Under the pieces are notes generated by a model that had not been told where the DNA came from, searched no databases, and saw only the letters and a program-made list of their open reading frames with translations. A program made the position numbers and the translations under genes. Shown here one piece after another: positions 5,942-31,471 of a stretch of 64,000 bases of DNA. Source of the DNA: Candidatus Poriferihabitaceae bacterium (GTDB taxonomy: Bacteria; Pseudomonadota; Gammaproteobacteria; Arenicellales; Poriferihabitantaceae). Each line of letters opens with the position of its first letter. The stretch's first letter is position 1. The DNA is taken from assembly GCA_965208975.1 (NCBI GenBank), contig CBDBQH010000003.1, positions 1,604,792 through 1,668,791 on the forward strand. Reading direction: 5' to 3'.

Positions 5942-6880
5942 TTGTCCGAGAATACAAAAGGGATTCTGTGCCTGGTAGGGGCGCTTGTTTTTCTGACAAT
6001 CAGTGATTCCATTGTCAAATGGTTGAGTCCTGACTATGCACTGCATCAGATCATGCTGTTTCGCGCGTTTTTCGCGCTTCTTGTAGCGCTGATTTTCATT
6101 TTCTTCGGTGGCGGGGTTCAGTCACTGAAAACCCGTCGTCCGGCATTGCATATTTTGCGCGGCATGTTCCTGGTTTTTGCCAATATGTTTTTTTTCATGA
6201 GCCTTGCAACCATGCCGATGGGGGAGACGGTGGCCCTGTTTTTTGCGGCGCCCCTGTTTATCTGTTTGCTGGCCCAGCCAATTCTGGGAGAAAAGGTCGG
6301 AGTGACCAGCTGGGCAGCAATCGGAATCGGCTTGATCGGAGTGTTGATCATGGTGAGACCGGGTACGGACCTGTTTCGGATTACTTCGCTGTTACCCATC
6401 CTGGCGGCGTTGATGTATGCAGGAATGCAGATGGTCACACGGAAACTGGGGTTGCAGGACCGGGCCAGTACCATGACGTTTTATATTCAGGTCTGTTTCA
6501 TCCTGGTAAGCGTCGTGATTGGACTGGCTGTTGGCGATGGGCGGTTCGATAACAGTGGCAATCCGACGGTCGGATTTTTGCTGCGAGCCTGGAAAATGCC
6601 GGATTTGGCTGCTTTGAAGTTGCTGGCGCTCTGCGGGTTTGTCATAGCCTTCGGCGCTTATCTGATGTCACAGGCCTACCGTATCGGGCAGGCTTCTGTC
6701 ATCGCGCCTTTCGAATACACATCATTGCCTTTTGCCCTGATTACAGGTTATCTGCTCTGGGGGGATTGGCCGGATGCCATATCATTTGTCGGATGCGCTT
6801 TTATCGTAGGTGGTGGATTGGTTGTCGCGCTTTTCGACAAGCGGCTGGTAGCGGAGGTTGGAGTCCGGAAAAGGCCGTAG
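5942..6880 (+). CDS. DMT-superfamily (EamA-like) transporter
   Basis: About 10 hydrophobic segments are arranged as two EamA-like halves. TTG start. Confidence 0.7.
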   Translation: MSENTKGILCLVGALVFLTISDSIVKWLSPDYALHQIMLFRAFFALLVALIFIFFGGGVQSLKTRRPALHILRGMFLVFANMFFFMSLATMPMGETVALFFAAPLFICLLAQPILGEKVGVTSWAAIGIGLIGVLIMVRPGTDLFRITSLLPILAALMYAGMQMVTRKLGLQDRASTMTFYIQVCFILVSVVIGLAVGDGRFDNSGNPTVGFLLRAWKMPDLAALKLLALCGFVIAFGAYLMSQAYRIGQASVIAPFEYTSLPFALITGYLLWGDWPDAISFVGCAFIVGGGLVVALFDKRLVAEVGVRKRP

Positions 6881-9081
6881 GCCTGGCAGATGTGGCGGGT
6901 TTGTGTTGGCAAATGGTGGAGGAGGCCGGCCTGTATGATCGCTCGCAGCCGCGCTTTACCCTGTTTTTTCCCTCGCGGGGGCGCCAGCGAGTTGCACTGC
7001 CGCCAGGGCTTTGACTGAAGGATCCGTTCAATCAGCAAGGCCGCATCCGTCTCTGACAGGTCATTATCTTCTGTGGTAAGCAGATATTGGCAGAACCCGG
7101 ACAGAGCGCTTGAAATGTTGTCCATGTTGCGGTGGGCAAAACCAAACCCGATGAGGTCAATCAGTTCATCCTGTGGAGGTATGTAACGGTTGTTCTGGCG
7201 AGATAACGAGTTGTAAATTTCGATCATCAGTTTCGGTTCCATATCCCGATACCGGGTTTTTAAATGGAGCGGGAGATTTCCCCGGAACTTGTTCTGTGCC
7301 CGGTATGCCAGCTGTTCTCCCCGCCTGGAGAGGGGGCGCATCATCGCGCAGGACAGAGCGCCGGTATTAGCGCCTGGTTTGAATCCGATGCGTACTGGCA
7401 GAAACAAGTTTTTGCCCCAGAACCGGATGAAGGGAGCGCTCGCGCCGAATGACGCGCTCAACGAGTCCAGGGCTTTGTATTGGCTCGCGATTTCACGGAT
7501 CAAGGCGCTACCGATGCCGCTCCGTTGATATTCGGGCTTAACAACAATACGAACGATCCGGGCGGTGGTCTGCTGTGCTCCTTCATGGAGTCCTGCCTGT
7601 GCGGCAAGCAGTTCAGCGAAAAGGTGACCCACCGGACGTGAGTGGTTACCCCAGACTTCCCGGGCCTGGGTTTCCGACAAGCCGCCTTCGACAGATACCA
7701 GCGCAACCCCGGATACCTGACCCTGGAAACCAGCGCAGTAAATGTCCAGATTCGGCGAGTCCAGCAAATACCGGAGGTCGCCCGGACGGGTGCGGTAGTG
7801 CGCCTGAGTCAATAACGCGAACACTTCCCGCAATCGGGATTCGCAGGCCACCAGTTGGTTTTTGTCAATAGCTGTTATATTGATGTTCGAGGCTGAATGT
7901 TTCTCTCCTGGGACGGGAGCGGATTCGGCGTCGAGAAGCAGGATGTCGAACAGGAGTTTCTCCACAGGGTCCTGCTCTGCCCACCGGATTGGATGACGCA
8001 ATTCGCATTTTTTCCATCCTCGTGTGTATTGATCCAGCAATTTGCCGAAATGGGTTGCGAAACCACGGCCTGTTCCTTCGTAGCCATGAACGGTGCTGGC
8101 AAATGCGATTCGCGGGTAGGTTTTCAGGATTTCCGTTAAGACGGGAATCGGCAGGGTTGCCGCTTCATCAATCAGCAGCATTTCGATATCCGCTTTTTCC
8201 CGGATCAGCCGGTCCGCCGGGATGAATTTCAGGGCGGTATCCTTCGCACCGGAGTCGATCCGCGCGTGTTTGAATACGTTTTCAACGGATTTCCGGTTCA
8301 GGCCACAGACTCCGATACGGTGGACCCGGCCGCTGTCCAGTAAAGCCCTTGCCGCCAGCCCTAAGGCGGCGGATTTACCTCTGCCGCGGTCGGCAAGCAA
8401 AACCACAGGATGCCGTCTTTGCCCGGTAACGACTTTTTTTACCGCGTTGACCGCTTGTGTTTGATCTCTATAATCCGGGTGAGTTTGCCCGCACCGGCTC
8501 CGGGGGAGTTCTGGCAACGATGGCAGGCCGCAGCCCTGTTCGATCAGGATGCAGTGTTCCGAAGACTGGATTCTGCGTACCAGGCGTTCAATATAGCGGC
8601 TGTGCCGGGGCGGTGAGAGTCCGTGGGGTATGCGCTTTTCGAACAGATAATCCCGGATTTTCGGCCAGTGAGTGAGCGCGGGAGCGAGCAGAATCAGCAA
8701 CCCTCCCGCTTTCACGGTTGCCGCCACAATGCCGATTGCGTCCGCTTCAAATCCACTGTGGCAGTCATGGATCACCGCATCGTATTCGCGTCCCAGGTGA
8801 TTGCGGCATTGATTGATTCTAACGGATTGATGGATTTCTGTCGGAGACAGCGGTGAATAATCCGGATCGGATACCAGGAGGATGTTCTGTTTATCCGGTT
8901 TGGTGAAAGGTTCGCACAAATCCTGCGCCGAACGCCATCCCCAGTCCATATCGCCACACAGGACGATTGCGTGTCTGTGGCGCTTCAGTTCGCCGATCTC
9001 GTGTAATCGGTAACCCCGTTCAATGAACCGTGTTTTGTGTAACGGGCGGATCATTGTCGGTTTCGTCTGTTCGCAACTCAA
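6748..9081 (-). CDS. tmcA: tRNA(Met) cytidine acetyltransferase
   Basis: It has a helicase-type P-loop (LLADRGRGKSAALG) followed by a GNAT acetyl-CoA motif (VKPEYQRSGIGSALI), which is the TmcA architecture. The 3' end overlaps the convergent transporter gene by 133 nt. Confidence 0.8.
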   Translation of the reverse strand: MSCEQTKPTMIRPLHKTRFIERGYRLHEIGELKRHRHAIVLCGDMDWGWRSAQDLCEPFTKPDKQNILLVSDPDYSPLSPTEIHQSVRINQCRNHLGREYDAVIHDCHSGFEADAIGIVAATVKAGGLLILLAPALTHWPKIRDYLFEKRIPHGLSPPRHSRYIERLVRRIQSSEHCILIEQGCGLPSLPELPRSRCGQTHPDYRDQTQAVNAVKKVVTGQRRHPVVLLADRGRGKSAALGLAARALLDSGRVHRIGVCGLNRKSVENVFKHARIDSGAKDTALKFIPADRLIREKADIEMLLIDEAATLPIPVLTEILKTYPRIAFASTVHGYEGTGRGFATHFGKLLDQYTRGWKKCELRHPIRWAEQDPVEKLLFDILLLDAESAPVPGEKHSASNINITAIDKNQLVACESRLREVFALLTQAHYRTRPGDLRYLLDSPNLDIYCAGFQGQVSGVALVSVEGGLSETQAREVWGNHSRPVGHLFAELLAAQAGLHEGAQQTTARIVRIVVKPEYQRSGIGSALIREIASQYKALDSLSASFGASAPFIRFWGKNLFLPVRIGFKPGANTGALSCAMMRPLSRRGEQLAYRAQNKFRGNLPLHLKTRYRDMEPKLMIEIYNSLSRQNNRYIPPQDELIDLIGFGFAHRNMDNISSALSGFCQYLLTTEDNDLSETDAALLIERILQSKPWRQCNSLAPPRGKKQGKARLRAIIQAGLLHHLPTQTRHICQAYGLFRTPTSATSRLSKSATTNPPPTIKAHPTNDMASGQSPQSR

Positions 9082-10588: not shown

Positions 10589-11533
10589 ATGGCATTGAAT
10601 CAGGGAATATTTTCGCGGCTTGCAAAAACCCGGCAGGCTCTGTCTTCCGGCTTGATGGGATTATTCTCGTCAAGGTCGAAGCTGGACGATCCGTTGTTCG
10701 ACGAGATCGAGGATCAATTGATTATGGCGGATTTGGGGGTGGCTACCAGCCGACTGATCGTTGACAGGTTGCGCGGTGAGGCCAGGTCCGGTCATTATAA
10801 CTCATCGGAGCGGGTGATCAGCGCTCTTGGGCAGATCATTCAGGCCATCCTGAACGAGAATCAGCGCTGTGGCCCTCCGGTTGCGCCCCAAAAACCCCAT
10901 GTCCTGTTGATGGTCGGGGTGAATGGGGTCGGCAAGACCACGACGCTGGCGAAAATGGCGAATCGGTTCAGGCAAAGCGGTCAATCCGTGATGATGGCTG
11001 CGTGCGATACTTTTCGCGCCGCCGCGATTGAACAGCTTCAGACCTGGGGGGAGAGGCTCGATATACCGGTTATTTCCCAGGCGCACGGTTCTGACGCCGC
11101 GGCGGTTGCATTTGATGCGTACAGCGCCGCCAAGGCCAGGGGGGTTGATTATCTGTTGATTGATTCGGCGGGACGACAACATACTCACAGTGACCTGATG
11201 GCGCAACTGGCCAAAATCAAACGAGTATTAGGCAAAACAGAGGAAACCGCGCCGCATGATGTGTATATCACAGTGGATGCGGGCAATGGTCAGAACGCGC
11301 TTTCCCAGGTTGAGAGTTTCAATCGTTCGATTCCGTTGACCGGCTTGTGTGTTACAAAACTCGATGGCACCGCCCGTGGCGGTATCGTGGTCGCGCTGGC
11401 GCACCGATTTGATTTGCCGGTCAGGTATATCGGGGTTGGGGAAGGGGTCGCGGATTTGAAGCCCTTCGACACCGATGAATTTGTTGCGGCCTTGTTGCCG
11501 GACATCGCGGACGTTGATCGTTCCGCGCATTAG
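10589..11533 (+). CDS. ftsY: Signal recognition particle receptor FtsY (short form, NG domain only)
   Basis: [27 protein letters not shown] and [10 protein letters not shown] motifs are present. Confidence 0.93.
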
Positions 11534-23903: not shown

Positions 23904-24671
23904 TCAATCAAAACCGTATTTGTACTTTACTTCGGAATCCGAATTCACCTGGGCGTGGAATGACACGATAATCCGCTCCTCTTCACCGTTGTAGGGAAAG
24001 GCCGTATGTTTGAGGTATGAGGGAAATATGATCAGGCTGCCGTCCTCAGGGTAGCTGGTCCAGGTGTTGTCCTGAAGATAGTAGTTGCCCCAATCGCCGT
24101 GCCCTGCGGCGCTTTCTTCCAGGTGGGGGCCATAAAACCGGGTTACGCCGTTCAACATTCCATTGGGCAGGCGGTCGTCGTTCGACTGACTGGCTGAGCC
24201 GGCCTGGACATAATATACGCCGGACCACGAGCAATTGCCATGGACATGAGTTTCATGGAAGGTGAATCCGTTGCTGATCTGGAACCACATGCCAGTCACA
24301 TCAACCCTCAGCGTTTTCAGCGCAAATTGTTTCCAGTATTTTTCGTTGAGGTTTCTGGAAATTTGATAAACCCCGTCGGTAATGAATGACTTGAGAACAT
24401 CCAGCGCCTGGTTATCAATATTGTTTGCGAAATGATCCGGGCTGATGAAACCGGACTCCGGGGTAGCCGAGCTTTCTTGCGAATTTTCCTGTCTGTACTG
24501 GTGGAAAAGTCTTTTCAACTCAGCATTGATTGCCTGATGATTTTCCAGTCTGCTCCTGGAAATAGTGGCGGGCCAAAGCTCGATGAACGGGTTTTGATCG
24601 TGACTGGACAATTTTGAGTGACTGGCGTTAATAGTATTTCCGGGAACCGGGTCGTGAGAGAATGATACCAT
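23904..24671 (-). CDS. Putative 2OG-Fe(II) oxygenase-like protein (TIGR02466-type)
   Basis: FHETHVHGNCSWSGVYYVQAG ... IIFPSYLKHTAFPY resembles the TIGR02466/2OG-FeII_Oxy_5 pattern. This is from memory and was not searched. Confidence 0.5.
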   Translation of the reverse strand: MVSFSHDPVPGNTINASHSKLSSHDQNPFIELWPATISRSRLENHQAINAELKRLFHQYRQENSQESSATPESGFISPDHFANNIDNQALDVLKSFITDGVYQISRNLNEKYWKQFALKTLRVDVTGMWFQISNGFTFHETHVHGNCSWSGVYYVQAGSASQSNDDRLPNGMLNGVTRFYGPHLEESAAGHGDWGNYYLQDNTWTSYPEDGSLIIFPSYLKHTAFPYNGEEERIIVSFHAQVNSDSEVKYKYGFD

Positions 24672-24752: not shown

Positions 24753-25160
24753 TCAGGACATCGGAAAGGACACCGTGAAATGCTCCACCCTGTACAGGTC
24801 ACGGTTAGGCGTATGCGCGACCTCTTCGGCTGGCATAGAATCTACAATGGCATCCAGTTTTTCATCACAGTCATGATCCTTAACCTCTATATATAACAAC
24901 TCATCGAGAGTAAAACGCTCAGCAAAACTAATCTCGCGGTCACCATCAATTTTAATATTTCGATACGTGAAGCCGGTATCCGTACAGCCTGGAAGGCCAA
25001 AAATCCATTTAAGCTGATTTTCTTCCGAACTCCGTGGGGTCAAAGCCGGTTTTGCGGCGCCGAAATCCTTGTTACTGCGTATGACCTTTCCCATCGTAAA
25101 TGGCCGGGCGGGCATCAGCCCGGAAATGGCGGTTCGGCTATCCATCGCCTTCAATACCTC
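24753..25160 (-). pseudogene. Fragment of an EcoRII-like restriction endonuclease (internal piece of the N-terminal half)
   Basis: PRSSEENQLKWIFGLPGCTDTGFTYRNIKIDGDREISFAERFTLDELLYIE aligns with AKGSTEENQLTWLFGLSVQELGAPFTYQDIENGDDQQVGFATRFILEELGIE of the 26053..27282 enzyme. There is no matching N- or C-terminal domain, and the apparent TTG start lies inside the 101-bp repeat. Confidence 0.6.
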
Positions 25161-25261
25161 AGCAGAAAGCTGGATCAATCAACAAGGCCAATATGACTTA
25201 GGCAGGTAGGTCATCGCCGACTCTCCCGGTGCACCGCCTCCACCAGCGTTTGCACGCGCTC
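25161..25261. repeat. Left direct repeat: a duplicate of the last 17 hemE codons plus 50 bp downstream
   Basis: agcagaaagctggatcaatcaacaaggccaatatgacttaggcaggtaggtcatcgccgactctcccggtgcacc...ccaccagcgtttgcacgcgctc matches 30378..30478. Confidence 0.9.
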
Positions 25262-26053
25262 CGGGTAATTATTGCTGTCCCGTTTTTCAATTGCTTTGAG
25301 CGCATCCTCAGGCAGGGTTGCATAGACCTCTTCGACATGCTTGGGTTCAGACATCGTTTTCTCAGCGATCAGGTTCAGAAGTTTGAACAAAGTCTCGGCA
25401 GTCGCTCTATCATCACGAAGGTCGACCTGGCCGGGGTGGACCGCGTTATTACCGATTACACGGACTGCATCAAGAGCCATCTGAGCACGTTGATCAAGTC
25501 CATCTTTAACCAATTCACCTATATCATCGTTGAGGGTCTTCCCCGATTTACCAAGTTCCTTGCAAAGCTTTTGAATGGCCAACCGGATCAAGGCAGCCGA
25601 ACCTCTCGGCGACAAGTCAAGGATGCTGCTGGCTTCGTCATAGTCTCGACGGATGTCATCAGGCAGGTCAGGATTTGCAGGCGGCGCCTCACCGCGCTGT
25701 GGCCAAATCAGCTTGTCATGGGTCCAGATCGAAATATCTTTGCAGTTGAAACATTCCGAAACAAATGTGTTGTGAAGCAAAAAATTCGCATAATACTCAC
25801 CCTTGCGTTCTCCGAAAAACGGGCGACCATTAGCCATCTTTTCAACCCATTGAAAGAGTTTTTCTCGATCCTCGGCATCCTCAATATGTTCGAAATTGAC
25901 TTCTCCTCGGTTCTCTGGACTAATGACAATAGGAAGCCGTTTTTTTTCTGATGTTGGAAGAGCGCACAAGAGCCACCAACGCTGCATTGCCAACGCGCCA
26001 CAGTGTGGACAGTTGAAAGCAGTTTCTTTAACTGAAGGAGAAACATATTTCAT
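25211..26053 (-). CDS. Zn-ribbon + DUF4145 domain protein; the last 17 aa are encoded by the duplicated hemE end
   Basis: CPHCG...CFNC cysteine pairs, then SPRGSAALIRLAIQKLCKELG...DAVRVIGNNAVHPG, the DUF4145 signature from memory. Its start overlaps the endonuclease stop (TAATG). The C-terminus [17 protein letters not shown] compares with hem[18 protein letters not shown]. Confidence 0.75.
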   Translation of the reverse strand: MKYVSPSVKETAFNCPHCGALAMQRWWLLCALPTSEKKRLPIVISPENRGEVNFEHIEDAEDREKLFQWVEKMANGRPFFGERKGEYYANFLLHNTFVSECFNCKDISIWTHDKLIWPQRGEAPPANPDLPDDIRRDYDEASSILDLSPRGSAALIRLAIQKLCKELGKSGKTLNDDIGELVKDGLDQRAQMALDAVRVIGNNAVHPGQVDLRDDRATAETLFKLLNLIAEKTMSEPKHVEEVYATLPEDALKAIEKRDSNNYPERVQTLVEAVHRESRR

Positions 26054-27282
26054 TATTTATTACTCTTCTGTTGCTTTCGTATCTGTCCAATGAATTCATG
26101 AATGTCCATCAACCACGCTCGCTGGGCAACCGAGCAGGTGCAGTGCAGCTCTCTAGGCAAGACTAACTGCAGCCTGTTGGCCTGCATTTCATTTGTCTGA
26201 TTTTCACTGATACCGGGTTCAAGGGTCAGAAGATGCTTGTCCGGTATCCTTGCCGCTTCCGAGAGAACCTGGCGCCACCTGTCCTTGCAAGTCGACTTGA
26301 CACCCAGCATGGAAAGGCCGGTTGCCGGGAACTTTTTGTCATGGTATTCCCCTGCACCGGGAAACAGAAAGTCAGGTTTGGCTTTGTGTTCGGTGACAGC
26401 CTGCCGGTCATATTTCAGTGCAAAGACACGAAATATTTCTGCAAGGTGATGTTCCAGTGCATGTCCGGCACGGGATTTCCTCCTGTTCTGGACACGGAGT
26501 GAATACTTGACAAATCCATCAACGTCCACGACCTTTCCAACCAGAAATCCTGCCCGCAGACGGCCGGACACGACACGGCGCTCCATGTGGCGAAACAATT
26601 TTTTCTCTTGATCAATCCAGGCAAGCAGAGCCGCATCCGGGTCATCCTGCGGATTGATTTCAGGAAGTGCTTTTCGGGCTTCTTCCGAAAATTTCTCAGT
26701 TTTTGGAAAGGCATCCCCAAAGGGTTCCAGAATTCTATCCAGCCGGTCAGTTTCCGGTTCCTCAGTCTCTATACCCAGTTCCTCAAGAATGAATCGTGTA
26801 GCAAAACCCACCTGCTGATCATCACCATTTTCAATATCCTGGTACGTAAAGGGGGCGCCCAACTCCTGAACAGATAGACCAAAAAGCCATGTAAGCTGAT
26901 TTTCTTCCGTACTTCCCTTGGCTACCACAATAATCATGAACTCACCTGCAGGCCTCCTGGCGATAATGAGCAGGTCTCCTGCACTGGCACACTCCATCAC
27001 AAGATTGCTCCTGAAATACAACCTGTGCTCACTGCGGGTGGGATGTAATTCACGCGCGTCATACCATGTGATATGAGTATCTTCGGAAAAACCCTCATTT
27101 TCTCCACCAAACCACACAAACCGGGTCGGCTGGTTTACCAGCCTTTCCGGACCCAGCAGCCTCTTCATCGGCATGACTCCATTGAACTCGTGCTGGTTTG
27201 AGCTTTCGGGATGGGCTTCCACAGCACTCAGTCGTTTTGCGACCACACCGACAAAATATTCAGACAAAAACCCTTTTTTCAT
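26053..27282 (-). CDS. Type II restriction endonuclease, EcoRII-like
   Basis: The N-terminus YFVGVVAKRLSAVEA...NQHEFNG resembles the EcoRII effector domain. The C-terminal half RRKSRAGHALEHHLAEIF...KPDFLFPG...KSTCKDRWRQVLSEAARI..KHLLTLEPGIS resembles the EcoRII catalytic domain. Its neighbours are vsr and dcm. Confidence 0.7.
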   Translation of the reverse strand: MKKGFLSEYFVGVVAKRLSAVEAHPESSNQHEFNGVMPMKRLLGPERLVNQPTRFVWFGGENEGFSEDTHITWYDARELHPTRSEHRLYFRSNLVMECASAGDLLIIARRPAGEFMIIVVAKGSTEENQLTWLFGLSVQELGAPFTYQDIENGDDQQVGFATRFILEELGIETEEPETDRLDRILEPFGDAFPKTEKFSEEARKALPEINPQDDPDAALLAWIDQEKKLFRHMERRVVSGRLRAGFLVGKVVDVDGFVKYSLRVQNRRKSRAGHALEHHLAEIFRVFALKYDRQAVTEHKAKPDFLFPGAGEYHDKKFPATGLSMLGVKSTCKDRWRQVLSEAARIPDKHLLTLEPGISENQTNEMQANRLQLVLPRELHCTCSVAQRAWLMDIHEFIGQIRKQQKSNK

Positions 27283-27761
27283 TTCTCACTGCCCCTTGCG
27301 TTTTCTTCCCGCACACCTTCAACCGTGTGATCCCCACGTCCTGAACACAACCACTTTTCTGTCGAGCTTATTACCCTGTCCGGGCCGAGCCTGGTTTTCC
27401 CTTTCAAGGCACATTCGTGAATCACGGCAACACGCCAGCCTTCCTCTTTCAGGGCCTTTCGGGTTTCTTCATCCTTCTGCCGGTTGCGGGTGATTTTCCT
27501 GCACCAGAATTCCTGTCTGGTAGACGGCCATTTGAACAAATGACAATCATGACCATGCCAGAAGCAGCCATTGACAAAAATGATAGCCTTGTATTTCGGG
27601 AATGACATATCCGGTTTTCCGGGGAGCTTGCGATCATGCAGCCTATATCGGAACCCTTTAGCATGCAGAGCCTTGCGAATAAAAAGCTCTGGCTTCGTAT
27701 CCTTTGCACGGATACCAGCCATCATGCGCCTGCGGGTTTCCGAAGAGACAATATCAGGCAA
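27279..27761 (-). CDS. vsr: Very short patch repair endonuclease
   Basis: RRRMMAGIRAKDTKPELFIRKALHAKGFRYRLHDRKLPGKPDMSFPKYKAIIFVNGCFWHGHDC. It forms an ATGA overlap with the endonuclease start. Confidence 0.92.
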   Translation of the reverse strand: MPDIVSSETRRRMMAGIRAKDTKPELFIRKALHAKGFRYRLHDRKLPGKPDMSFPKYKAIIFVNGCFWHGHDCHLFKWPSTRQEFWCRKITRNRQKDEETRKALKEEGWRVAVIHECALKGKTRLGPDRVISSTEKWLCSGRGDHTVEGVREENARGSEK

Positions 27762-27767
27762 TGGCCG

Positions 27768-29078
27768 TCAGATTCCTCTTTCCTCTTCAAATACAAATTC
27801 CGGCACAAGTTCAACCTGTTTTTTATCTTTGCCCATTACGGTGTGAATATGGGGAAGCATGAACTGTGCGACCGCATCAACAACCGGAACGACAACTGCA
27901 TTGCCAAACTGCTTGTAGGCTTGTGTGTCGGAAACAGGAATCTCGAAATGTAGTTTTCCGGGACCATCGAAACCCATCAGGCGAGCGCATTCTCTCGGAG
28001 TCAGACGGCGCGGCCTGTTTCCATGCTGCCGAACCAGTATCTCCGATCCGTCCTTGTAGTAGCGGGCGGACAGTGTACGGGAAACATCATCCGGCCCAAC
28101 AAGTCCATAACCGAATCCGTTTCCTCTTGCCTTGTGTTTTGCGGCATAGTTTTCAAGATAGGTCCACAGGTTTTCCGAAAGCGTATATTTGGGGTTGACC
28201 GTGCCGGACGGTCCGTGTGTATAAGGTGGCTCTTCCAGTTCAGTGCCATCCTGTGGATGCAGAATTGTGCGCATCACCGGCCCATTTCCCGGATCAGGCA
28301 CGTCAAGCTGGCTGAAATCAAAACCGGTATCCCCACGAAAACCTGCAATAAAAATCCTCTCGCGGTTTTGCGGGACAACCCCCTTTGCATTGATCACGCG
28401 CCAGTCGATATAGTAACCGAGATCCTCCTCCAGGGTTTTTCGGATAATGCGGAATGTGTTCCCCCCGTCATGACTAACCAGGTTTTTCACGTTTTCCAGC
28501 AGAAAGGCAGGTGGTCGGTGATTGGCAATAATACGTGCTGTATCAAAAAACAGGGTGCCCTGTGCCTCACAGGAAAAACCGTGTTTTTTCCCCAGCGCAT
28601 TTTTCTTTGAAACACCGGCTATGGAAAATGGCTGACAGGGAAATCCTGCAACCAGCACATCATGCACAGGTATTTCCTCCTCTGCTATAGCGGTAATATC
28701 ACCTGCAACAGGGTGATCGCACGGAAAGTTCGCTTGATAAGTCTTCCGGCAGGCAATATTCCATTCACTGGTAAAAACACACTGCCCACCAATGGACTCG
28801 AACCCCATACGAAGGCCACCGATTCCGGCAAACAAGTCAATAAAGGTGAATGCGGGTTTTTCCGCAGGCCGATCCAGAATACACATCCTGGCCTGTCGCG
28901 ATAACCAGTCGGTAACAGCCTTTCTGGGAATTGTTTCCCCGGATTCCCAACGATAAATGGTTCTGACATTGTACCCCGTTCTTGAGGCAATCTCTTTCCT
29001 GGGCAAGCCCGATTTCTCAATAAGTCGGGATATTTCTGTCTGCATGGATACTGGCACTCTCATTTCTTTCTGGGTCAA
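27768..29078 (-). CDS. dcm: DNA (cytosine-5)-methyltransferase with an N-terminal HTH domain
   Basis: Motif I FIDLFAGIGGLRMGF, motif IV GFPCQPFS, motif VI ENV and QFGNAV are present. The N-terminal HTH is EISRLIEKSGLPRKEIASRTGYNVRTIYRWESG. Confidence 0.93.
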   Translation of the reverse strand: MTQKEMRVPVSMQTEISRLIEKSGLPRKEIASRTGYNVRTIYRWESGETIPRKAVTDWLSRQARMCILDRPAEKPAFTFIDLFAGIGGLRMGFESIGGQCVFTSEWNIACRKTYQANFPCDHPVAGDITAIAEEEIPVHDVLVAGFPCQPFSIAGVSKKNALGKKHGFSCEAQGTLFFDTARIIANHRPPAFLLENVKNLVSHDGGNTFRIIRKTLEEDLGYYIDWRVINAKGVVPQNRERIFIAGFRGDTGFDFSQLDVPDPGNGPVMRTILHPQDGTELEEPPYTHGPSGTVNPKYTLSENLWTYLENYAAKHKARGNGFGYGLVGPDDVSRTLSARYYKDGSEILVRQHGNRPRRLTPRECARLMGFDGPGKLHFEIPVSDTQAYKQFGNAVVVPVVDAVAQFMLPHIHTVMGKDKKQVELVPEFVFEEERGI

Positions 29079-29246
29079 TTTTTGACATTATGACATAACA
29101 AGATAGCCTTTTCAATTTTATTCTGGTGCCAGATGCCTACGAAGTGATTTTATTCTTCACGGGGTTGAATCTACGGAATCCGCACTCATATATTAGAAAG
29201 TCAATTTTGAATTGCCATTTACAGTCCAAATACAGGAGAATCTAAA

Positions 29247-29579
29247 ATGACCAGCAAGTTCGAACTATTCAAAGATACAAGGGGTGAATATCGATTTCGA
29301 CTCAAGGCAGGCAACGGCGAAATTATTCTAAAAAGCGAAGGGTATGGAAGCAAAGCGGGTGCGGAAAACGGAATCACCTCGGTTAAAACCAACTCACCCG
29401 ATGGTTCACGCTACGACCGCAAGGTATCGACTAATAACAAGTATTTCTTCAATCTCAAAGCTGCCAACAGTCAAGTGATCGGCACTTCAGAGATGTACGA
29501 AACCGCTGCCGGTCGGGACAATGGCATTGAAAGCGTGAAGACCAACGCTCCAATAGCTGTGATCAACGACCTGACGTAG
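29247..29579 (+). CDS. YegP-family (tandem DUF1508) protein
   Basis: There are two repeats of the F.LK..NGE.I..SE.Y....GAENGI.SVK pattern. A GGAG RBS is present. Confidence 0.8.
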   Translation: MTSKFELFKDTRGEYRFRLKAGNGEIILKSEGYGSKAGAENGITSVKTNSPDGSRYDRKVSTNNKYFFNLKAANSQVIGTSEMYETAAGRDNGIESVKTNAPIAVINDLT

Positions 29580-29645
29580 TTTGGCCACTGGAAACGGGGG
29601 TCTTGTTCACATAAAGATGAAACCGGAAATATAGGAGTTTGCTAC

Positions 29646-30110
29646 ATGCGTACTATCCTTGCAGTGTTCCTCGTGTTCGTTTGTACCCTGGAGTTACTGT
29701 TCGCCCAAACGAACGGTGGGACTGATGCTGTGAGCAACGGTGCCTCAAGCAACTCTGGGCAGCCTTGCTATTGGTCGCAACCGCTTGTATGGGTCGAAAT
29801 AGCTTACATCACTGTAGTGTTGGTAACAGGTTTTTTGTGTACTTTCTTTCGCAGTAATGGGAGTGAGCGTGCCAAGCTGAAGGGTATGAATCTGCCCGAA
29901 GGAACGATTCGCAGTATGTTGGCACTGATCATAGTAGGTTCTTTTGTGATTTTCCTCGTCTTGGGCTCGGAACTGAAAAACTTTGAAAGCGTTGTCACTG
30001 CCTTCGGAACTCTCGCCGGGGCTGTATTGGGGTTTTACTTTGCACATCGTGGTGCACAAACAGAAAAAATTGAACAACAGAGTAATCACTCTGACCCGCC
30101 AGCGAATTGA
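29646..30110 (+). CDS. Membrane protein, unknown function (signal peptide + about 3 TM)
   Basis: MRTILAVFLVFVCTLELLFAQ followed by hydrophobic segments. An AGGAG RBS is present. Confidence 0.55.
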   Translation: MRTILAVFLVFVCTLELLFAQTNGGTDAVSNGASSNSGQPCYWSQPLVWVEIAYITVVLVTGFLCTFFRSNGSERAKLKGMNLPEGTIRSMLALIIVGSFVIFLVLGSELKNFESVVTAFGTLAGAVLGFYFAHRGAQTEKIEQQSNHSDPPAN

Positions 30111-30331
30111 AGACTGTCAGCGCCAAAGCTGGTGATGTTATTGAACTGGAAATCAAACGCGTTGTGCGTCATGTTCGCGCAGATTGGAACAATGTCGCTT
30201 TATGGCAAGGAGCCGATGAAGAACCTATGTTACTGAAAGATGTACCAGACCACCCCTTGATGAACATGAGTGGGAATGCTAATGCACAACCCCCCCCACC
30301 CCGGCGAAATTATAAAAGAGCTTTGTCTTGA
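30107..30331 (+). other. Composite ORF: unknown N-terminal part running into the start of a frameshifted HigA-like gene
   Basis: It has a TTG start overlapping the previous stop. From the ATG at 30260 it reads [12 protein letters not shown] and then leaves the HigA frame at a C8 tract. Confidence 0.35.
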
Positions 30332-30413
30332 CCCTCTTGACCTTACTGTCACATCAGCGGCCGAGGCGTTAGGGGTGAGCAGAAAGCTGGATCAATCAAC
30401 AAGGCCAATATGA
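30260..30413 (+). pseudogene. higA: HigA/VapI-type HTH antitoxin remnant, frameshifted at the C8 tract (30290..30297) and truncated at the right direct repeat
   Basis: With 7 instead of 8 C the reading is [42 protein letters not shown], the classic HPGEIL...LGVSR HigA N-terminus. Homology stops at 30377/30378, where the repeat begins. Confidence 0.6.
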
Positions 30414-30478
30414 CTTAGGCAGGTAGGTCATCGCCGACTCTCCCGGTGCACCACTTCCACCAGCGTTTGCACGCGCTC
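30378..30478. repeat. Right direct repeat (the authentic hemE 3' end plus 50 bp downstream)
   Basis: See the entry for 25161..25261. Confidence 0.9.
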
Positions 30479-31471
30479 GGGGTTAATGCCGGGGTGAATG
30501 CCGTGGCCGAGGTTGAAGATATGTCCTTCGCCCGGGCCGAAGTCTTCGAGTACACGCTTCGCTTCCTGTTCCACCTTGCCATTGGAAGCATAGAGTACGG
30601 TGGGGTCCATATTGCCTTGCAGGGCAACCGCCCCTGCTGTCCTTTTCCTGGCCTCACCCAGTGAGACCGTCCAGTCCAGTCCGATCGCGTCGCATCCGGT
30701 TTGTGCGATTCGCTCCAGCCACCCGCACCCGCCTTTGGTAAACAGGGTCACCGGGGTTGCAGAACAGGCTGGATCCGTTTTCAGCGCGGATACGATTTGC
30801 GCCATGTAATCCAGCGAGAATTTCTGGTAGTCCGGCGTACTCAACACGCCGCCCCATGTGTCGAATACCATGATGGTCTGCGCTCCCGCCATAACCTGCG
30901 CCTTCAGATAGTCAATCGCCGCCGCAGTGATCTTCTGCAACAATCGGTGCATGGTTGCCGGTTGATCATGCATCATACCCTTGACCAGCATAAAATCCCG
31001 GCTCGACCCTCCTTCGACCATATAGGTAGCCAGAGTCCATGGACTGCCGCCAAATCCAATCAGCGGGACTTTACCTTCGAGCTCCCTGCGAGTCATCCGG
31101 ATGGCTTCCATGACGTAGCCCAGTTGTGTTTCTACCTCCACTGCCGGCAATTTTTCGATCTCTGTCGCCGACCGCAACGGGCGTTCAAATCGGGGTCCGA
31201 TTCCTTCATTCAGTGTCAATCCCAGGCCCATGGCGTCCGGGATGGTCAGAATGTCGGAGAAAATAATGGCGGCGTCCAGGTCGAATCTGTGAATTGGTTG
31301 TAGCGTCACTTCACAGGCCAGTGCGGGATTTTTGCACAGTGTCAGGAAATCTCCGGCGCGGGCGCGGCTTTGCCGATACTCCGGCAGGTAGCGTCCGGCC
31401 TGCCGCATGATCCAGATCGGCGTACAGTCAACCGGCTGACGCTTCAACGCTCTTAAAAATCGGTCGTTCAT
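30428..31471 (-). CDS. hemE: Uroporphyrinogen decarboxylase
   Basis: [33 protein letters not shown]... over a 347-aa ORF. Confidence 0.96.

Follow-up and report, generated by a model that had tools for sequence, protein, structure and literature searches.

We examined a 64,000-nucleotide stretch of DNA (hereafter, the window) from Candidatus Poriferihabitaceae bacterium (contig CBDBQH010000003.1), in which four consecutive open reading frames (ORFs), all on the minus strand, join a restriction-modification (R-M) system to a fourth gene that encodes a DUF4145 protein. An earlier note, made from the sequence, had described these as a four-gene operon of a Dcm methyltransferase with a helix-turn-helix (HTH) domain, Vsr, an EcoRII-like restriction endonuclease (REase) and a DUF4145 protein, and both the ORFs and their Pfam families (DNA_methylase with HTH_3, Vsr, EcoRII-C and DUF4145, respectively) agree with that description. 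The junctions that had been reported could all be read in the sequence as well: 6 nucleotides (nt) lie between the dcm stop codon (27768-27770) and the TTG start of vsr (27759-27761), ATGA at 27279-27282 is common to the end of vsr and the start of the REase gene, and the REase TAA has one base in common with the ATG of the DUF4145 gene within TAATG at 26051-26055. The 6-nt gap hinges on the TTG start of vsr, which is backed by a Pfam Vsr alignment beginning at residue 3 and by full-length alignment in relatives. Overlaps of this kind are the commonest junctions in bacterial operons, and those seen here indicate co-transcription, possibly with translational coupling or termination-reinitiation, but not functional dependence. 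A candidate operon promoter, the best sigma-70-like match (TTGAAA-17-CATAAT with TG; 29087..29115, minus strand; consensus-level only), lies just upstream of dcm, where homology with the cassettes of relatives also starts (approximately 29098-29117). Promoter and terminator scans of the region gave site counts not above those of shuffled sequence and are to be read as weak hints only, and the scan found no promoter-like site directly before the fourth gene.

The first three genes make up a Dcm-Vsr-EcoRII module. The HTH-Dcm C5 cytosine DNA methyltransferase (27768-29078, minus strand; TTG start, followed in frame 15 nt downstream by an ATG) matches Pfam DNA_methylase over amino acids 77-405 (E=4e-79), HTH_3 over amino acids 18-52, and the PADLOC model MTase_II (E=2e-145). 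It is followed by the Vsr very-short-patch T:G mismatch endonuclease (27279-27761, minus strand; TTG start), identified by both Pfam (Vsr, E=5e-32) and PADLOC (Vsr, E=9e-37). The third gene (26053-27282, minus strand) encodes an EcoRII-type REase, in which Pfam, PDB, AlphaFold2 and Foldseek point to a divergent B3-like effector domain joined to an EcoRII-C catalytic domain. The full EcoRII-C profile (PF09019) aligns with amino acids 230-398 (E=4e-67), PDB sequence matches to EcoRII (3hqg/1na6; E=1e-39 to 2e-40) cover the C-terminal half only, and Pfam EcoRII-N gave no match in the REase. That the N-terminal half might be a novel domain, given that Pfam sees EcoRII-C alone, is ruled out by structure: the AlphaFold2 model (pLDDT 84) was matched by Foldseek to full-length EcoRII (1na6_B, E=1e-24, 421 columns), and its N-terminal half to EcoRII-N (3hqf_A, E=4e-5, prob 1.0), BfiI and plant B3 domains. 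As modelled, the REase is a complete EcoRII-type protein, and its closer sequence relationship to EcoRII than to PspGI or Ecl18kI makes CCWGG specificity plausible and would likewise suggest that it acts only with two recognition sites. A second EcoRII-like enzyme (P0123), 77% identical to this REase and encoded outside the window, suggests that there is a paralogous R-M system elsewhere in the chromosome.

The fourth gene, which the earlier note had left as an unexplained component, proved to have relatives with a published function: its sequence identifies it as a member of the PD-T7-4/RAZR family rather than as an uncharacterised protein. The ORF is 280 amino acids long (25211-26053, minus strand) and matches Pfam DUF4145 (E=7e-17); the RAZR homologue proper, as recognised with PADLOC, PDB and Foldseek, occupies codons 1-262 (25268..26053, minus strand) and consists of a zinc ribbon, a linker and a DUF4145/HEPN RNase domain. 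The PADLOC PD-T7-4 model PDLC04109 aligns with it over profile positions 40-209 of 211 and an additional N-terminal stretch (E=1.3e-77), and the PDB sequence match is chain OA of 9y9c, the E. coli protein in the complex RAZR:Gp77 as resolved by cryo-electron microscopy (E=3.3e-47). In this alignment R198 and H206 of the window protein correspond to the catalytic R146 and H154 of E. coli RAZR, and the first of its two zinc knuckles, C15/C18 and C101/C104, aligns with that of RAZR; C15, C18, C101, C104, R198 and H206 are invariant across 117 homologues. The AlphaFold2 model (mean pLDDT 80.5) has beta strands at residues 12-31 and 91-117, and its top Foldseek match is again 9y9c_OA (E=1.3e-8, prob 1.0), with HEPN proteins next, which bears out the HEPN-like nuclease fold that had been suspected around RVIGNNAVHPG. 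A zinc ribbon and DUF4145 are the only domains found by Pfam and in the model, and no ABC-ATPase was seen with either. Homologues number more than 2,000; the best 120 are almost all 258-265 amino acids long and come mostly from Alpha- and Gammaproteobacteria.

PD-T7-4 came to light in a functional screen as a defence system of one gene (PMC9519451; Vassallo 2022) and has since been renamed RAZR, for ring-activated zinc-finger RNase (PMC13017515; Zhang 2026). It has been reported that its N-terminal Cys4 zinc ribbon, the specificity determinant of the protein, binds phage ring proteins (the portal or the Gp77 ring), that 24 copies assemble around the phage ring, and that the C-terminal DUF4145, a HEPN RNase of divergent type whose catalytic residues are R146 and H154, then cleaves RNA (single-stranded RNA) non-specifically, resulting in abortive infection (PMC13017515). 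The placement of DUF4145 in the HEPN superfamily dates from 2013, when zinc-ribbon fusions and occasional R-M operon contexts were also described (PMC3710099; Anantharaman 2013). The CxxC...CxxC N-terminus had been read as a binder of either nucleic acid or protein, and a binding role agrees with what is known of RAZR, in the light of which it is a protein-binding zinc ribbon that would act as a sensor of phage rings. The other possibility, nucleic-acid binding, which zinc ribbons are capable of, could together with the position of the gene at the end of the operon make the protein a regulator that binds operon DNA or RNA and times restriction relative to modification in the manner of C-proteins. 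Such a role is scarcely credible, since the family is one of catalytic HEPN RNases with an invariant Arg/His pair, the operon already has an HTH on its methyltransferase, and conserved methyltransferase-Vsr-REase (M-V-R) modules elsewhere do without a RAZR gene.

One part of the window protein differs markedly from the E. coli protein. The segment between the two knuckles (residues 29-97) is 69 amino acids long in the window RAZR versus 16 in E. coli RAZR, an insertion of approximately 53 amino acids that holds two helices in the AlphaFold2 model; the corresponding inter-knuckle loop of E. coli RAZR carries the trigger-contact residues R29, Y31, R35, T41 and E43 (PMC13017515). Because nearly all of the best 120 homologues are 258-265 amino acids long, RAZR with a long sensor is a large subfamily and not a peculiarity of the window.

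The earlier note had proposed that the fourth protein is a functional accessory of the R-M system, and had suggested a survey of gene neighbourhoods for conserved linkage to EcoRII, Vsr and Dcm; we carried out this survey in both directions. In the forward test, 80 genomic loci with RAZR homologues (43-77% identity) were searched, within up to 8 kilobases (kb), by tblastn with the Dcm, Vsr and REase of the window. The full Dcm-Vsr-EcoRII set was found at a single locus (L003, from a Candidatus Poriferihabitaceae metagenome-assembled genome; order Arenicellales, Gammaproteobacteria), one further locus has a methylase fragment of 35 amino acids, and the other 78 of the 80 gave no match to Dcm, Vsr or EcoRII. 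Furthermore, Pfam and PADLOC analysis of the nearest upstream and downstream ORFs at 79 loci revealed no recurrent partner beside RAZR: these neighbours belong to 62 Pfam families upstream and 50 downstream, the commonest of which, Lactamase_B, was met 4 times, and defence genes are occasional among them. In the reverse test, which covered 80 metagenomic loci with relatives of the REase (46-65% identity), Dcm, Vsr and REase were all detected at 59 and followed one another in this order, on the same strand, at 49 of the 80. A RAZR homologue was present at none of these 80 loci, 56 of which extend 800 nt or more downstream of the REase. The two tests together demonstrate that the conserved unit is the three-gene M-V-R module and that RAZR is a lineage-specific addition to it. 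Vsr, which had been regarded as an optional companion of such systems, is not merely that here, as the genes of this REase family are most often arranged Dcm-Vsr-REase. Among the RAZR loci we also observed one genome (L072) with two RAZR-like genes approximately 1 kb apart (6602-7018 and 8001-8564).

Close relatives of the locus were found to have lost either the R-M genes or RAZR. In the window the R-M genes are intact, and so is RAZR except for the loss of its stop codon (see below). L003 retains an intact R-M system (Dcm 92%, Vsr 86% and REase 83% identity), with a RAZR gene in which an 11-nt deletion shifts the frame just after the catalytic His; L085 likewise has intact R-M genes, and its RAZR carries a 2-nt deletion as well as an insertion sequence that cuts the 3' end. 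The reverse is seen in L081, L082 and L083/L084, where dcm is deleted or absent, vsr is fragmented or absent and the REase is reduced to C-terminal fragments, whereas RAZR is intact (84% identity) and keeps all invariant residues. L170 has Dcm-Vsr only and no RAZR. All four genes are open in the window alone among these loci. When the window was compared with the three R-M-decayed relatives, the ratio of nonsynonymous to synonymous substitution rates (dN/dS) was 0.05 for RAZR codons 99-262 (dS approximately 0.26-0.28) and 0.74-0.93 for the sensor insert; with relative-relative pairs added, the ranges were 0.02-0.05 and 0.74-1.03, respectively. The low ratio for codons 99-262, together with the intact RAZR genes of the R-M-decayed relatives, demonstrates that the RNase is kept under strong purifying selection without the R-M system, and the R-M system in turn persists without the RNase. 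Fast evolution of the sensor insert is as expected of a trigger-recognition surface. We also noted that both pseudogenes carry a 21-nt insertion relative to the window in the sensor insert (L003:8266-8286 and the same position in L085), which appears to repeat the adjoining ...FLLHNT... segment and points to indel-driven variation there.

The junction between the REase gene and RAZR varies as well. TAATG is common to the window, L003 and L085; in L081-L083 a spacer of approximately 113 nt, and not TAATG, separates the REase remnant from the RAZR start, and this spacer contains the best sigma-70-like match of the region (GTGACA-18-TATATT, 10/12; consensus-level only). The REase-RAZR coupling is therefore labile. 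These relatives also bear on whether RAZR could serve the R-M system as a guard, in the manner of PrrC, being held inactive by the R-M proteins or monitoring them and firing upon phage anti-restriction. Such an arrangement has a precedent in PrrC-EcoprrI, and HEPN genes, DUF4145 genes among them, recur in R-M operons (PMC3710099); at the present locus the gene is embedded in the operon by a start/stop overlap that three genomes have kept. E. coli RAZR, however, acts by itself and is switched on directly by the ring proteins of phages (PMC13017515), the fourth protein has no ABC-ATPase or other known R-M-interaction module, and R-M linkage is missing from 78 of 80 homologues just as RAZR is missing from all 80 REase relatives. 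With RAZR unbroken, and strong purifying selection acting on it, in genomes whose R-M genes have decayed, and the R-M genes intact where RAZR is broken, we regard a guard function as highly improbable. The proposal that the fourth gene is a functional accessory of the R-M system fails on the same grounds, namely a linkage that is not conserved, which the earlier note had itself named as refuting the proposal, and partners that are lost independently. Of the roles once suggested for it (sensor, regulator or second effector), that of second effector survives in a loose sense, and that of an R-M accessory does not, as the family defends as a single gene.

The window copy of RAZR is also set apart at both of its ends. 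Homologues end in ...RDGNN followed by TAA, whereas the corresponding codon of the window gene (25266-25268) is TAC, and translation runs on through 18 more codons to TGA. This read-through tail (25211..25267, minus strand; 18 codons plus stop) was recognised by alignment and by tblastn of the hemE tail as a duplicated 3' end of hemE, and pLDDT is below 50 over most of residues 263-280. It is only this read-through that brings the ORF to 280 amino acids, and 280 amino acids as the native length is ruled out, the last 18 being hemE tail. At the other end, the ATG overlaps the REase stop and leaves the gene no upstream spacer of its own, whereas RAZR relatives mostly have upstream gaps of 50-600 nt. 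In another genome (L001:7330-8004; 66% identity), RAZR overlaps an upstream ORF of 224 amino acids by 4 nt, and that ORF has no Pfam or PADLOC match.

With its stop codon lost, a hemE-derived tail added and its promoter spacer gone, the window RAZR might be a decaying passenger of the R-M operon and no longer a working defence gene. The TAC in place of TAA and the predicted disorder of the tail would fit such decay, as would the fact that RAZR is a pseudogene in both of the other genomes with a TAATG-fused intact R-M system (L003 and L085). We nevertheless think it unlikely, given that the frame is otherwise intact with all invariant residues present, that dN/dS against the relatives is 0.05 for the catalytic part, and that the change in the stop codon could be a single-base assembly error. 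In addition, RAZR with a C-terminal His6 or Flag tag was used in the published binding and in vitro cleavage experiments (PMC13017515), so a short C-terminal extension need not block folding or trigger binding.

Our interpretation, which we hold to be very likely correct, is that the locus carries two independent defence systems in one transcription unit and does not constitute a new four-part system. The HTH-Dcm would methylate host DNA and probably autoregulate its own promoter, and, judging from their families, Vsr would repair the T:G mismatches that arise by deamination of 5-methylcytosine and the two-domain EcoRII-like enzyme would cut unmethylated incoming DNA. By analogy with the E. 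coli protein, RAZR would stay latent until its zinc ribbon meets a ring-shaped phage assembly such as the portal, and would then polymerise around the ring, cleave RNA non-specifically and abort the infection. A small clade among sponge-associated Gammaproteobacteria has this gene attached via TAATG at the point where the R-M operon ends (3'), and because it has no promoter-bearing spacer it would depend for its expression on the R-M transcript, through read-through and termination-reinitiation. Neither layer should need the other, RAZR acting without R-M components and the R-M system without RAZR, and the cassette as a whole would be cargo of a variable defence hot spot directly downstream of hemE. 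Together the two layers would provide, from one transcript, a first line of defence that acts on DNA and a second, suicidal one that acts on RNA.

Several observations weigh against this interpretation. TAATG has been kept in three genomes, and co-expression may bring a selective advantage. Co-transcription is deduced from gene spacing, with promoter and terminator predictions at chance level, while the abortive phenotype, the trigger and the activity as an RNase would be carried over from a homologue that is approximately 34-50% identical over the aligned part. The insertion of approximately 53 amino acids replaces the trigger-contact loop of the E. coli protein, and both the target and the 24-mer ring geometry may differ from those of that protein. 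Finally, the window RAZR has lost its stop codon and gained a tail of 18 amino acids. A further reading would turn some of these features into adaptations: loss of the spacer and fusion to the R-M operon would slave the RNase to the HTH-autoregulated R-M promoter, possibly with cross-talk to EcoRII, in a PrrC-like two-layer cassette that moves as a unit into the hemE hot spot, or the enlarged sensor would recognise a class or geometry of phage assembly other than that recognised by E. coli RAZR. We judge this to be very unlikely.

On the interpretation of two stacked systems, the apparent mystery of the fourth gene is removed, as the gene belongs to a family of defence genes for which the mechanism was worked out in 2026. 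What is new is the fusion of a RAZR homologue with a long sensor to an M-V-R operon of EcoRII type, both kinds of system being already known. The locus provides a natural case of defence-gene stacking carried as far as translational fusion, and the related loci record the independent decay of each layer. The large long-sensor subfamily is itself uncharacterised, and its fast-evolving insert would be a good test of the ring-geometry rule of activation.

The window RAZR resembles the RAZR proteins of E. coli UMB1727 and Klebsiella variicola (PDB 9y9c) in its Cys4 zinc ribbon, its conserved linker and its DUF4145/HEPN domain with an Rx7H pair, in the hypervariability of the zinc-ribbon region, and in the location of the gene at the edge of mobile DNA. 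It differs from them in length (approximately 262 versus approximately 211 amino acids), in the partly helical insertion of approximately 53 amino acids at the E. coli trigger-contact site, and in being fused to an R-M operon with an 18-amino-acid tail and no promoter region of its own, whereas most relatives stand alone, a difference of organisation and not of biochemistry. E. coli PD-T7-4 homologues frequently overlap a gene for an integrase at the edge of a mobile element (PMC9519451), and it may be characteristic of the family that its genes overlap unrelated neighbours where an element ends. The R-M genes share with the EcoRII system (type IIE; 1na6, 3hqf and 3hqg) the catalytic domain (E=1e-40), the B3-like N-terminal fold, a C5 methyltransferase and Vsr; unlike in that system, the N-terminal domain of the window REase is too divergent for Pfam EcoRII-N, the methyltransferase has an N-terminal HTH, and the genes follow a co-directional M-V-R order. 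PrrC-EcoprrI (type Ic R-M; PMC3710099) is similar in that a latent HEPN RNase lies inside an R-M operon and a DNA-level line is followed by a suicidal RNA-level one. PrrC, however, carries an ABC-ATPase domain for its regulation, and its R-M partner physically masks it, whereas the window protein has no such domain, its linkage is not conserved, and the RAZR family is triggered directly by phage proteins.

The cassette lies in an island directly downstream of hemE (uroporphyrinogen decarboxylase, a housekeeping gene; 30428..31471, minus strand; Pfam URO-D, E=1e-136). A direct repeat of 106 nt, which comprises the last 56 nt of hemE and the 50 nt downstream of it, brackets 5.2 kb: copy B (30378..30483) overlaps the 3' end of the intact hemE, and copy A (25161..25266), 97% identical to it and 5217 nt away, marks the distal boundary of the island (neither copy is assigned a strand). 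GC content is 0.45-0.51 in the island versus 0.55-0.57 in the flanks, the low-GC stretch continuing down to approximately position 23.9 kb, and no integrase, transposase or recombinase was found in the island or within approximately 10 kb on either side. The synteny that the window shares with its relatives (PBP1A, aroB, gltB, gltD and hemE) ends exactly at the hemE stop (30428), and what follows hemE varies from genome to genome. L166/L167 have an empty site; L168, from the same genome as L082, has a 15-kb island with a toxin-antitoxin system, HEPN_Swt1 and DUF5343, CBASS and the decayed R-M genes with RAZR; L169 has GmrSD, PIN and HipBA; and L170 has Dcm-Vsr only. A further outcome of the comparison is that, in these sponge-associated bacteria, defence islands have a hot spot at the 3' end of hemE. 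Copies of the hemE tail also recur inside islands, for example at L081:2857-2943 and 10782-10840.

Inserts of R-M genes with long target duplications have been defined as shorter than 20 kb, containing R and M, flanked by direct repeats longer than 30 bp and lacking mobility genes (PMC2853133; Furuta, Abe and Kobayashi 2010). The window agrees with this description in its insert of 5217 nt with R and M, its 106-nt repeats and its lack of a recombinase, and further in that the repeats overlap the 3' end of a housekeeping gene and that the site is empty in related genomes; it departs from it in that its downstream flank is not syntenic with the empty-site genomes. The window flank 1-25160 (ABC transporter, clpB and glmU) differs from the sigma70-acyltransferase-hslUV-cytochrome bc1 cluster that follows hemE in L166/L169, so that the island falls on a synteny breakpoint. 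L003 and L081-L084 have in common with the window the junction at which the RAZR stop meets the hemE tail, the 3' end of L085 having been replaced by an insertion sequence. As this junction is shared and homology starts at approximately 29100, the shared unit runs from the promoter through M-V-R and RAZR to the hemE tail. Relatives that have the cassette elsewhere in a larger island share the same junction, which indicates that the duplication is old and that the locus has undergone repeated remodelling. Of the repeat, the relatives have the 56-nt hemE part alone, next to RAZR; the other 50 nt match L081:77-121, in a HigA-like HTH gene. The setting fits an R-M insertion accompanied by a long duplication of its target at a defence hot spot.

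Other cargo, on the plus strand (29247..30331), separates hemE from the cassette and consists of genes for a DUF1508 protein, a 154-amino-acid ORF and a 74-amino-acid antitoxin-like relic. The DUF1508 gene (YegP-like, with two repeats; E=3e-45) and the adjoining 154-amino-acid ORF (together 29247-30110, plus strand) are absent from the cassettes of relatives, and Pfam gave no family match for the 154- and 74-amino-acid ORFs. The first 51 amino acids of the latter (30107-30331, plus strand) are 88% identical to the product of a small gene beside a PemK toxin in L081-L083; since no toxin gene comes after it in the window and its C-terminus derives from a different fragment, it probably represents a truncated antitoxin left without its toxin. 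Immediately beyond the repeat is an ORF of 141 amino acids (24753..25178, minus strand; no Pfam match), of which amino acids 50-113 resemble REase amino acids 124-186 (44% identity over 66 amino acids; repeat D3, 89%), and which is probably what remains of an earlier EcoRII-like restriction gene. This relic is adjoined by a 2-oxoglutarate-Fe(II) (2OG-Fe(II)) oxygenase gene (23904-24671, minus strand), and the location of both in the low-GC stretch suggests an older layer of inserted DNA.

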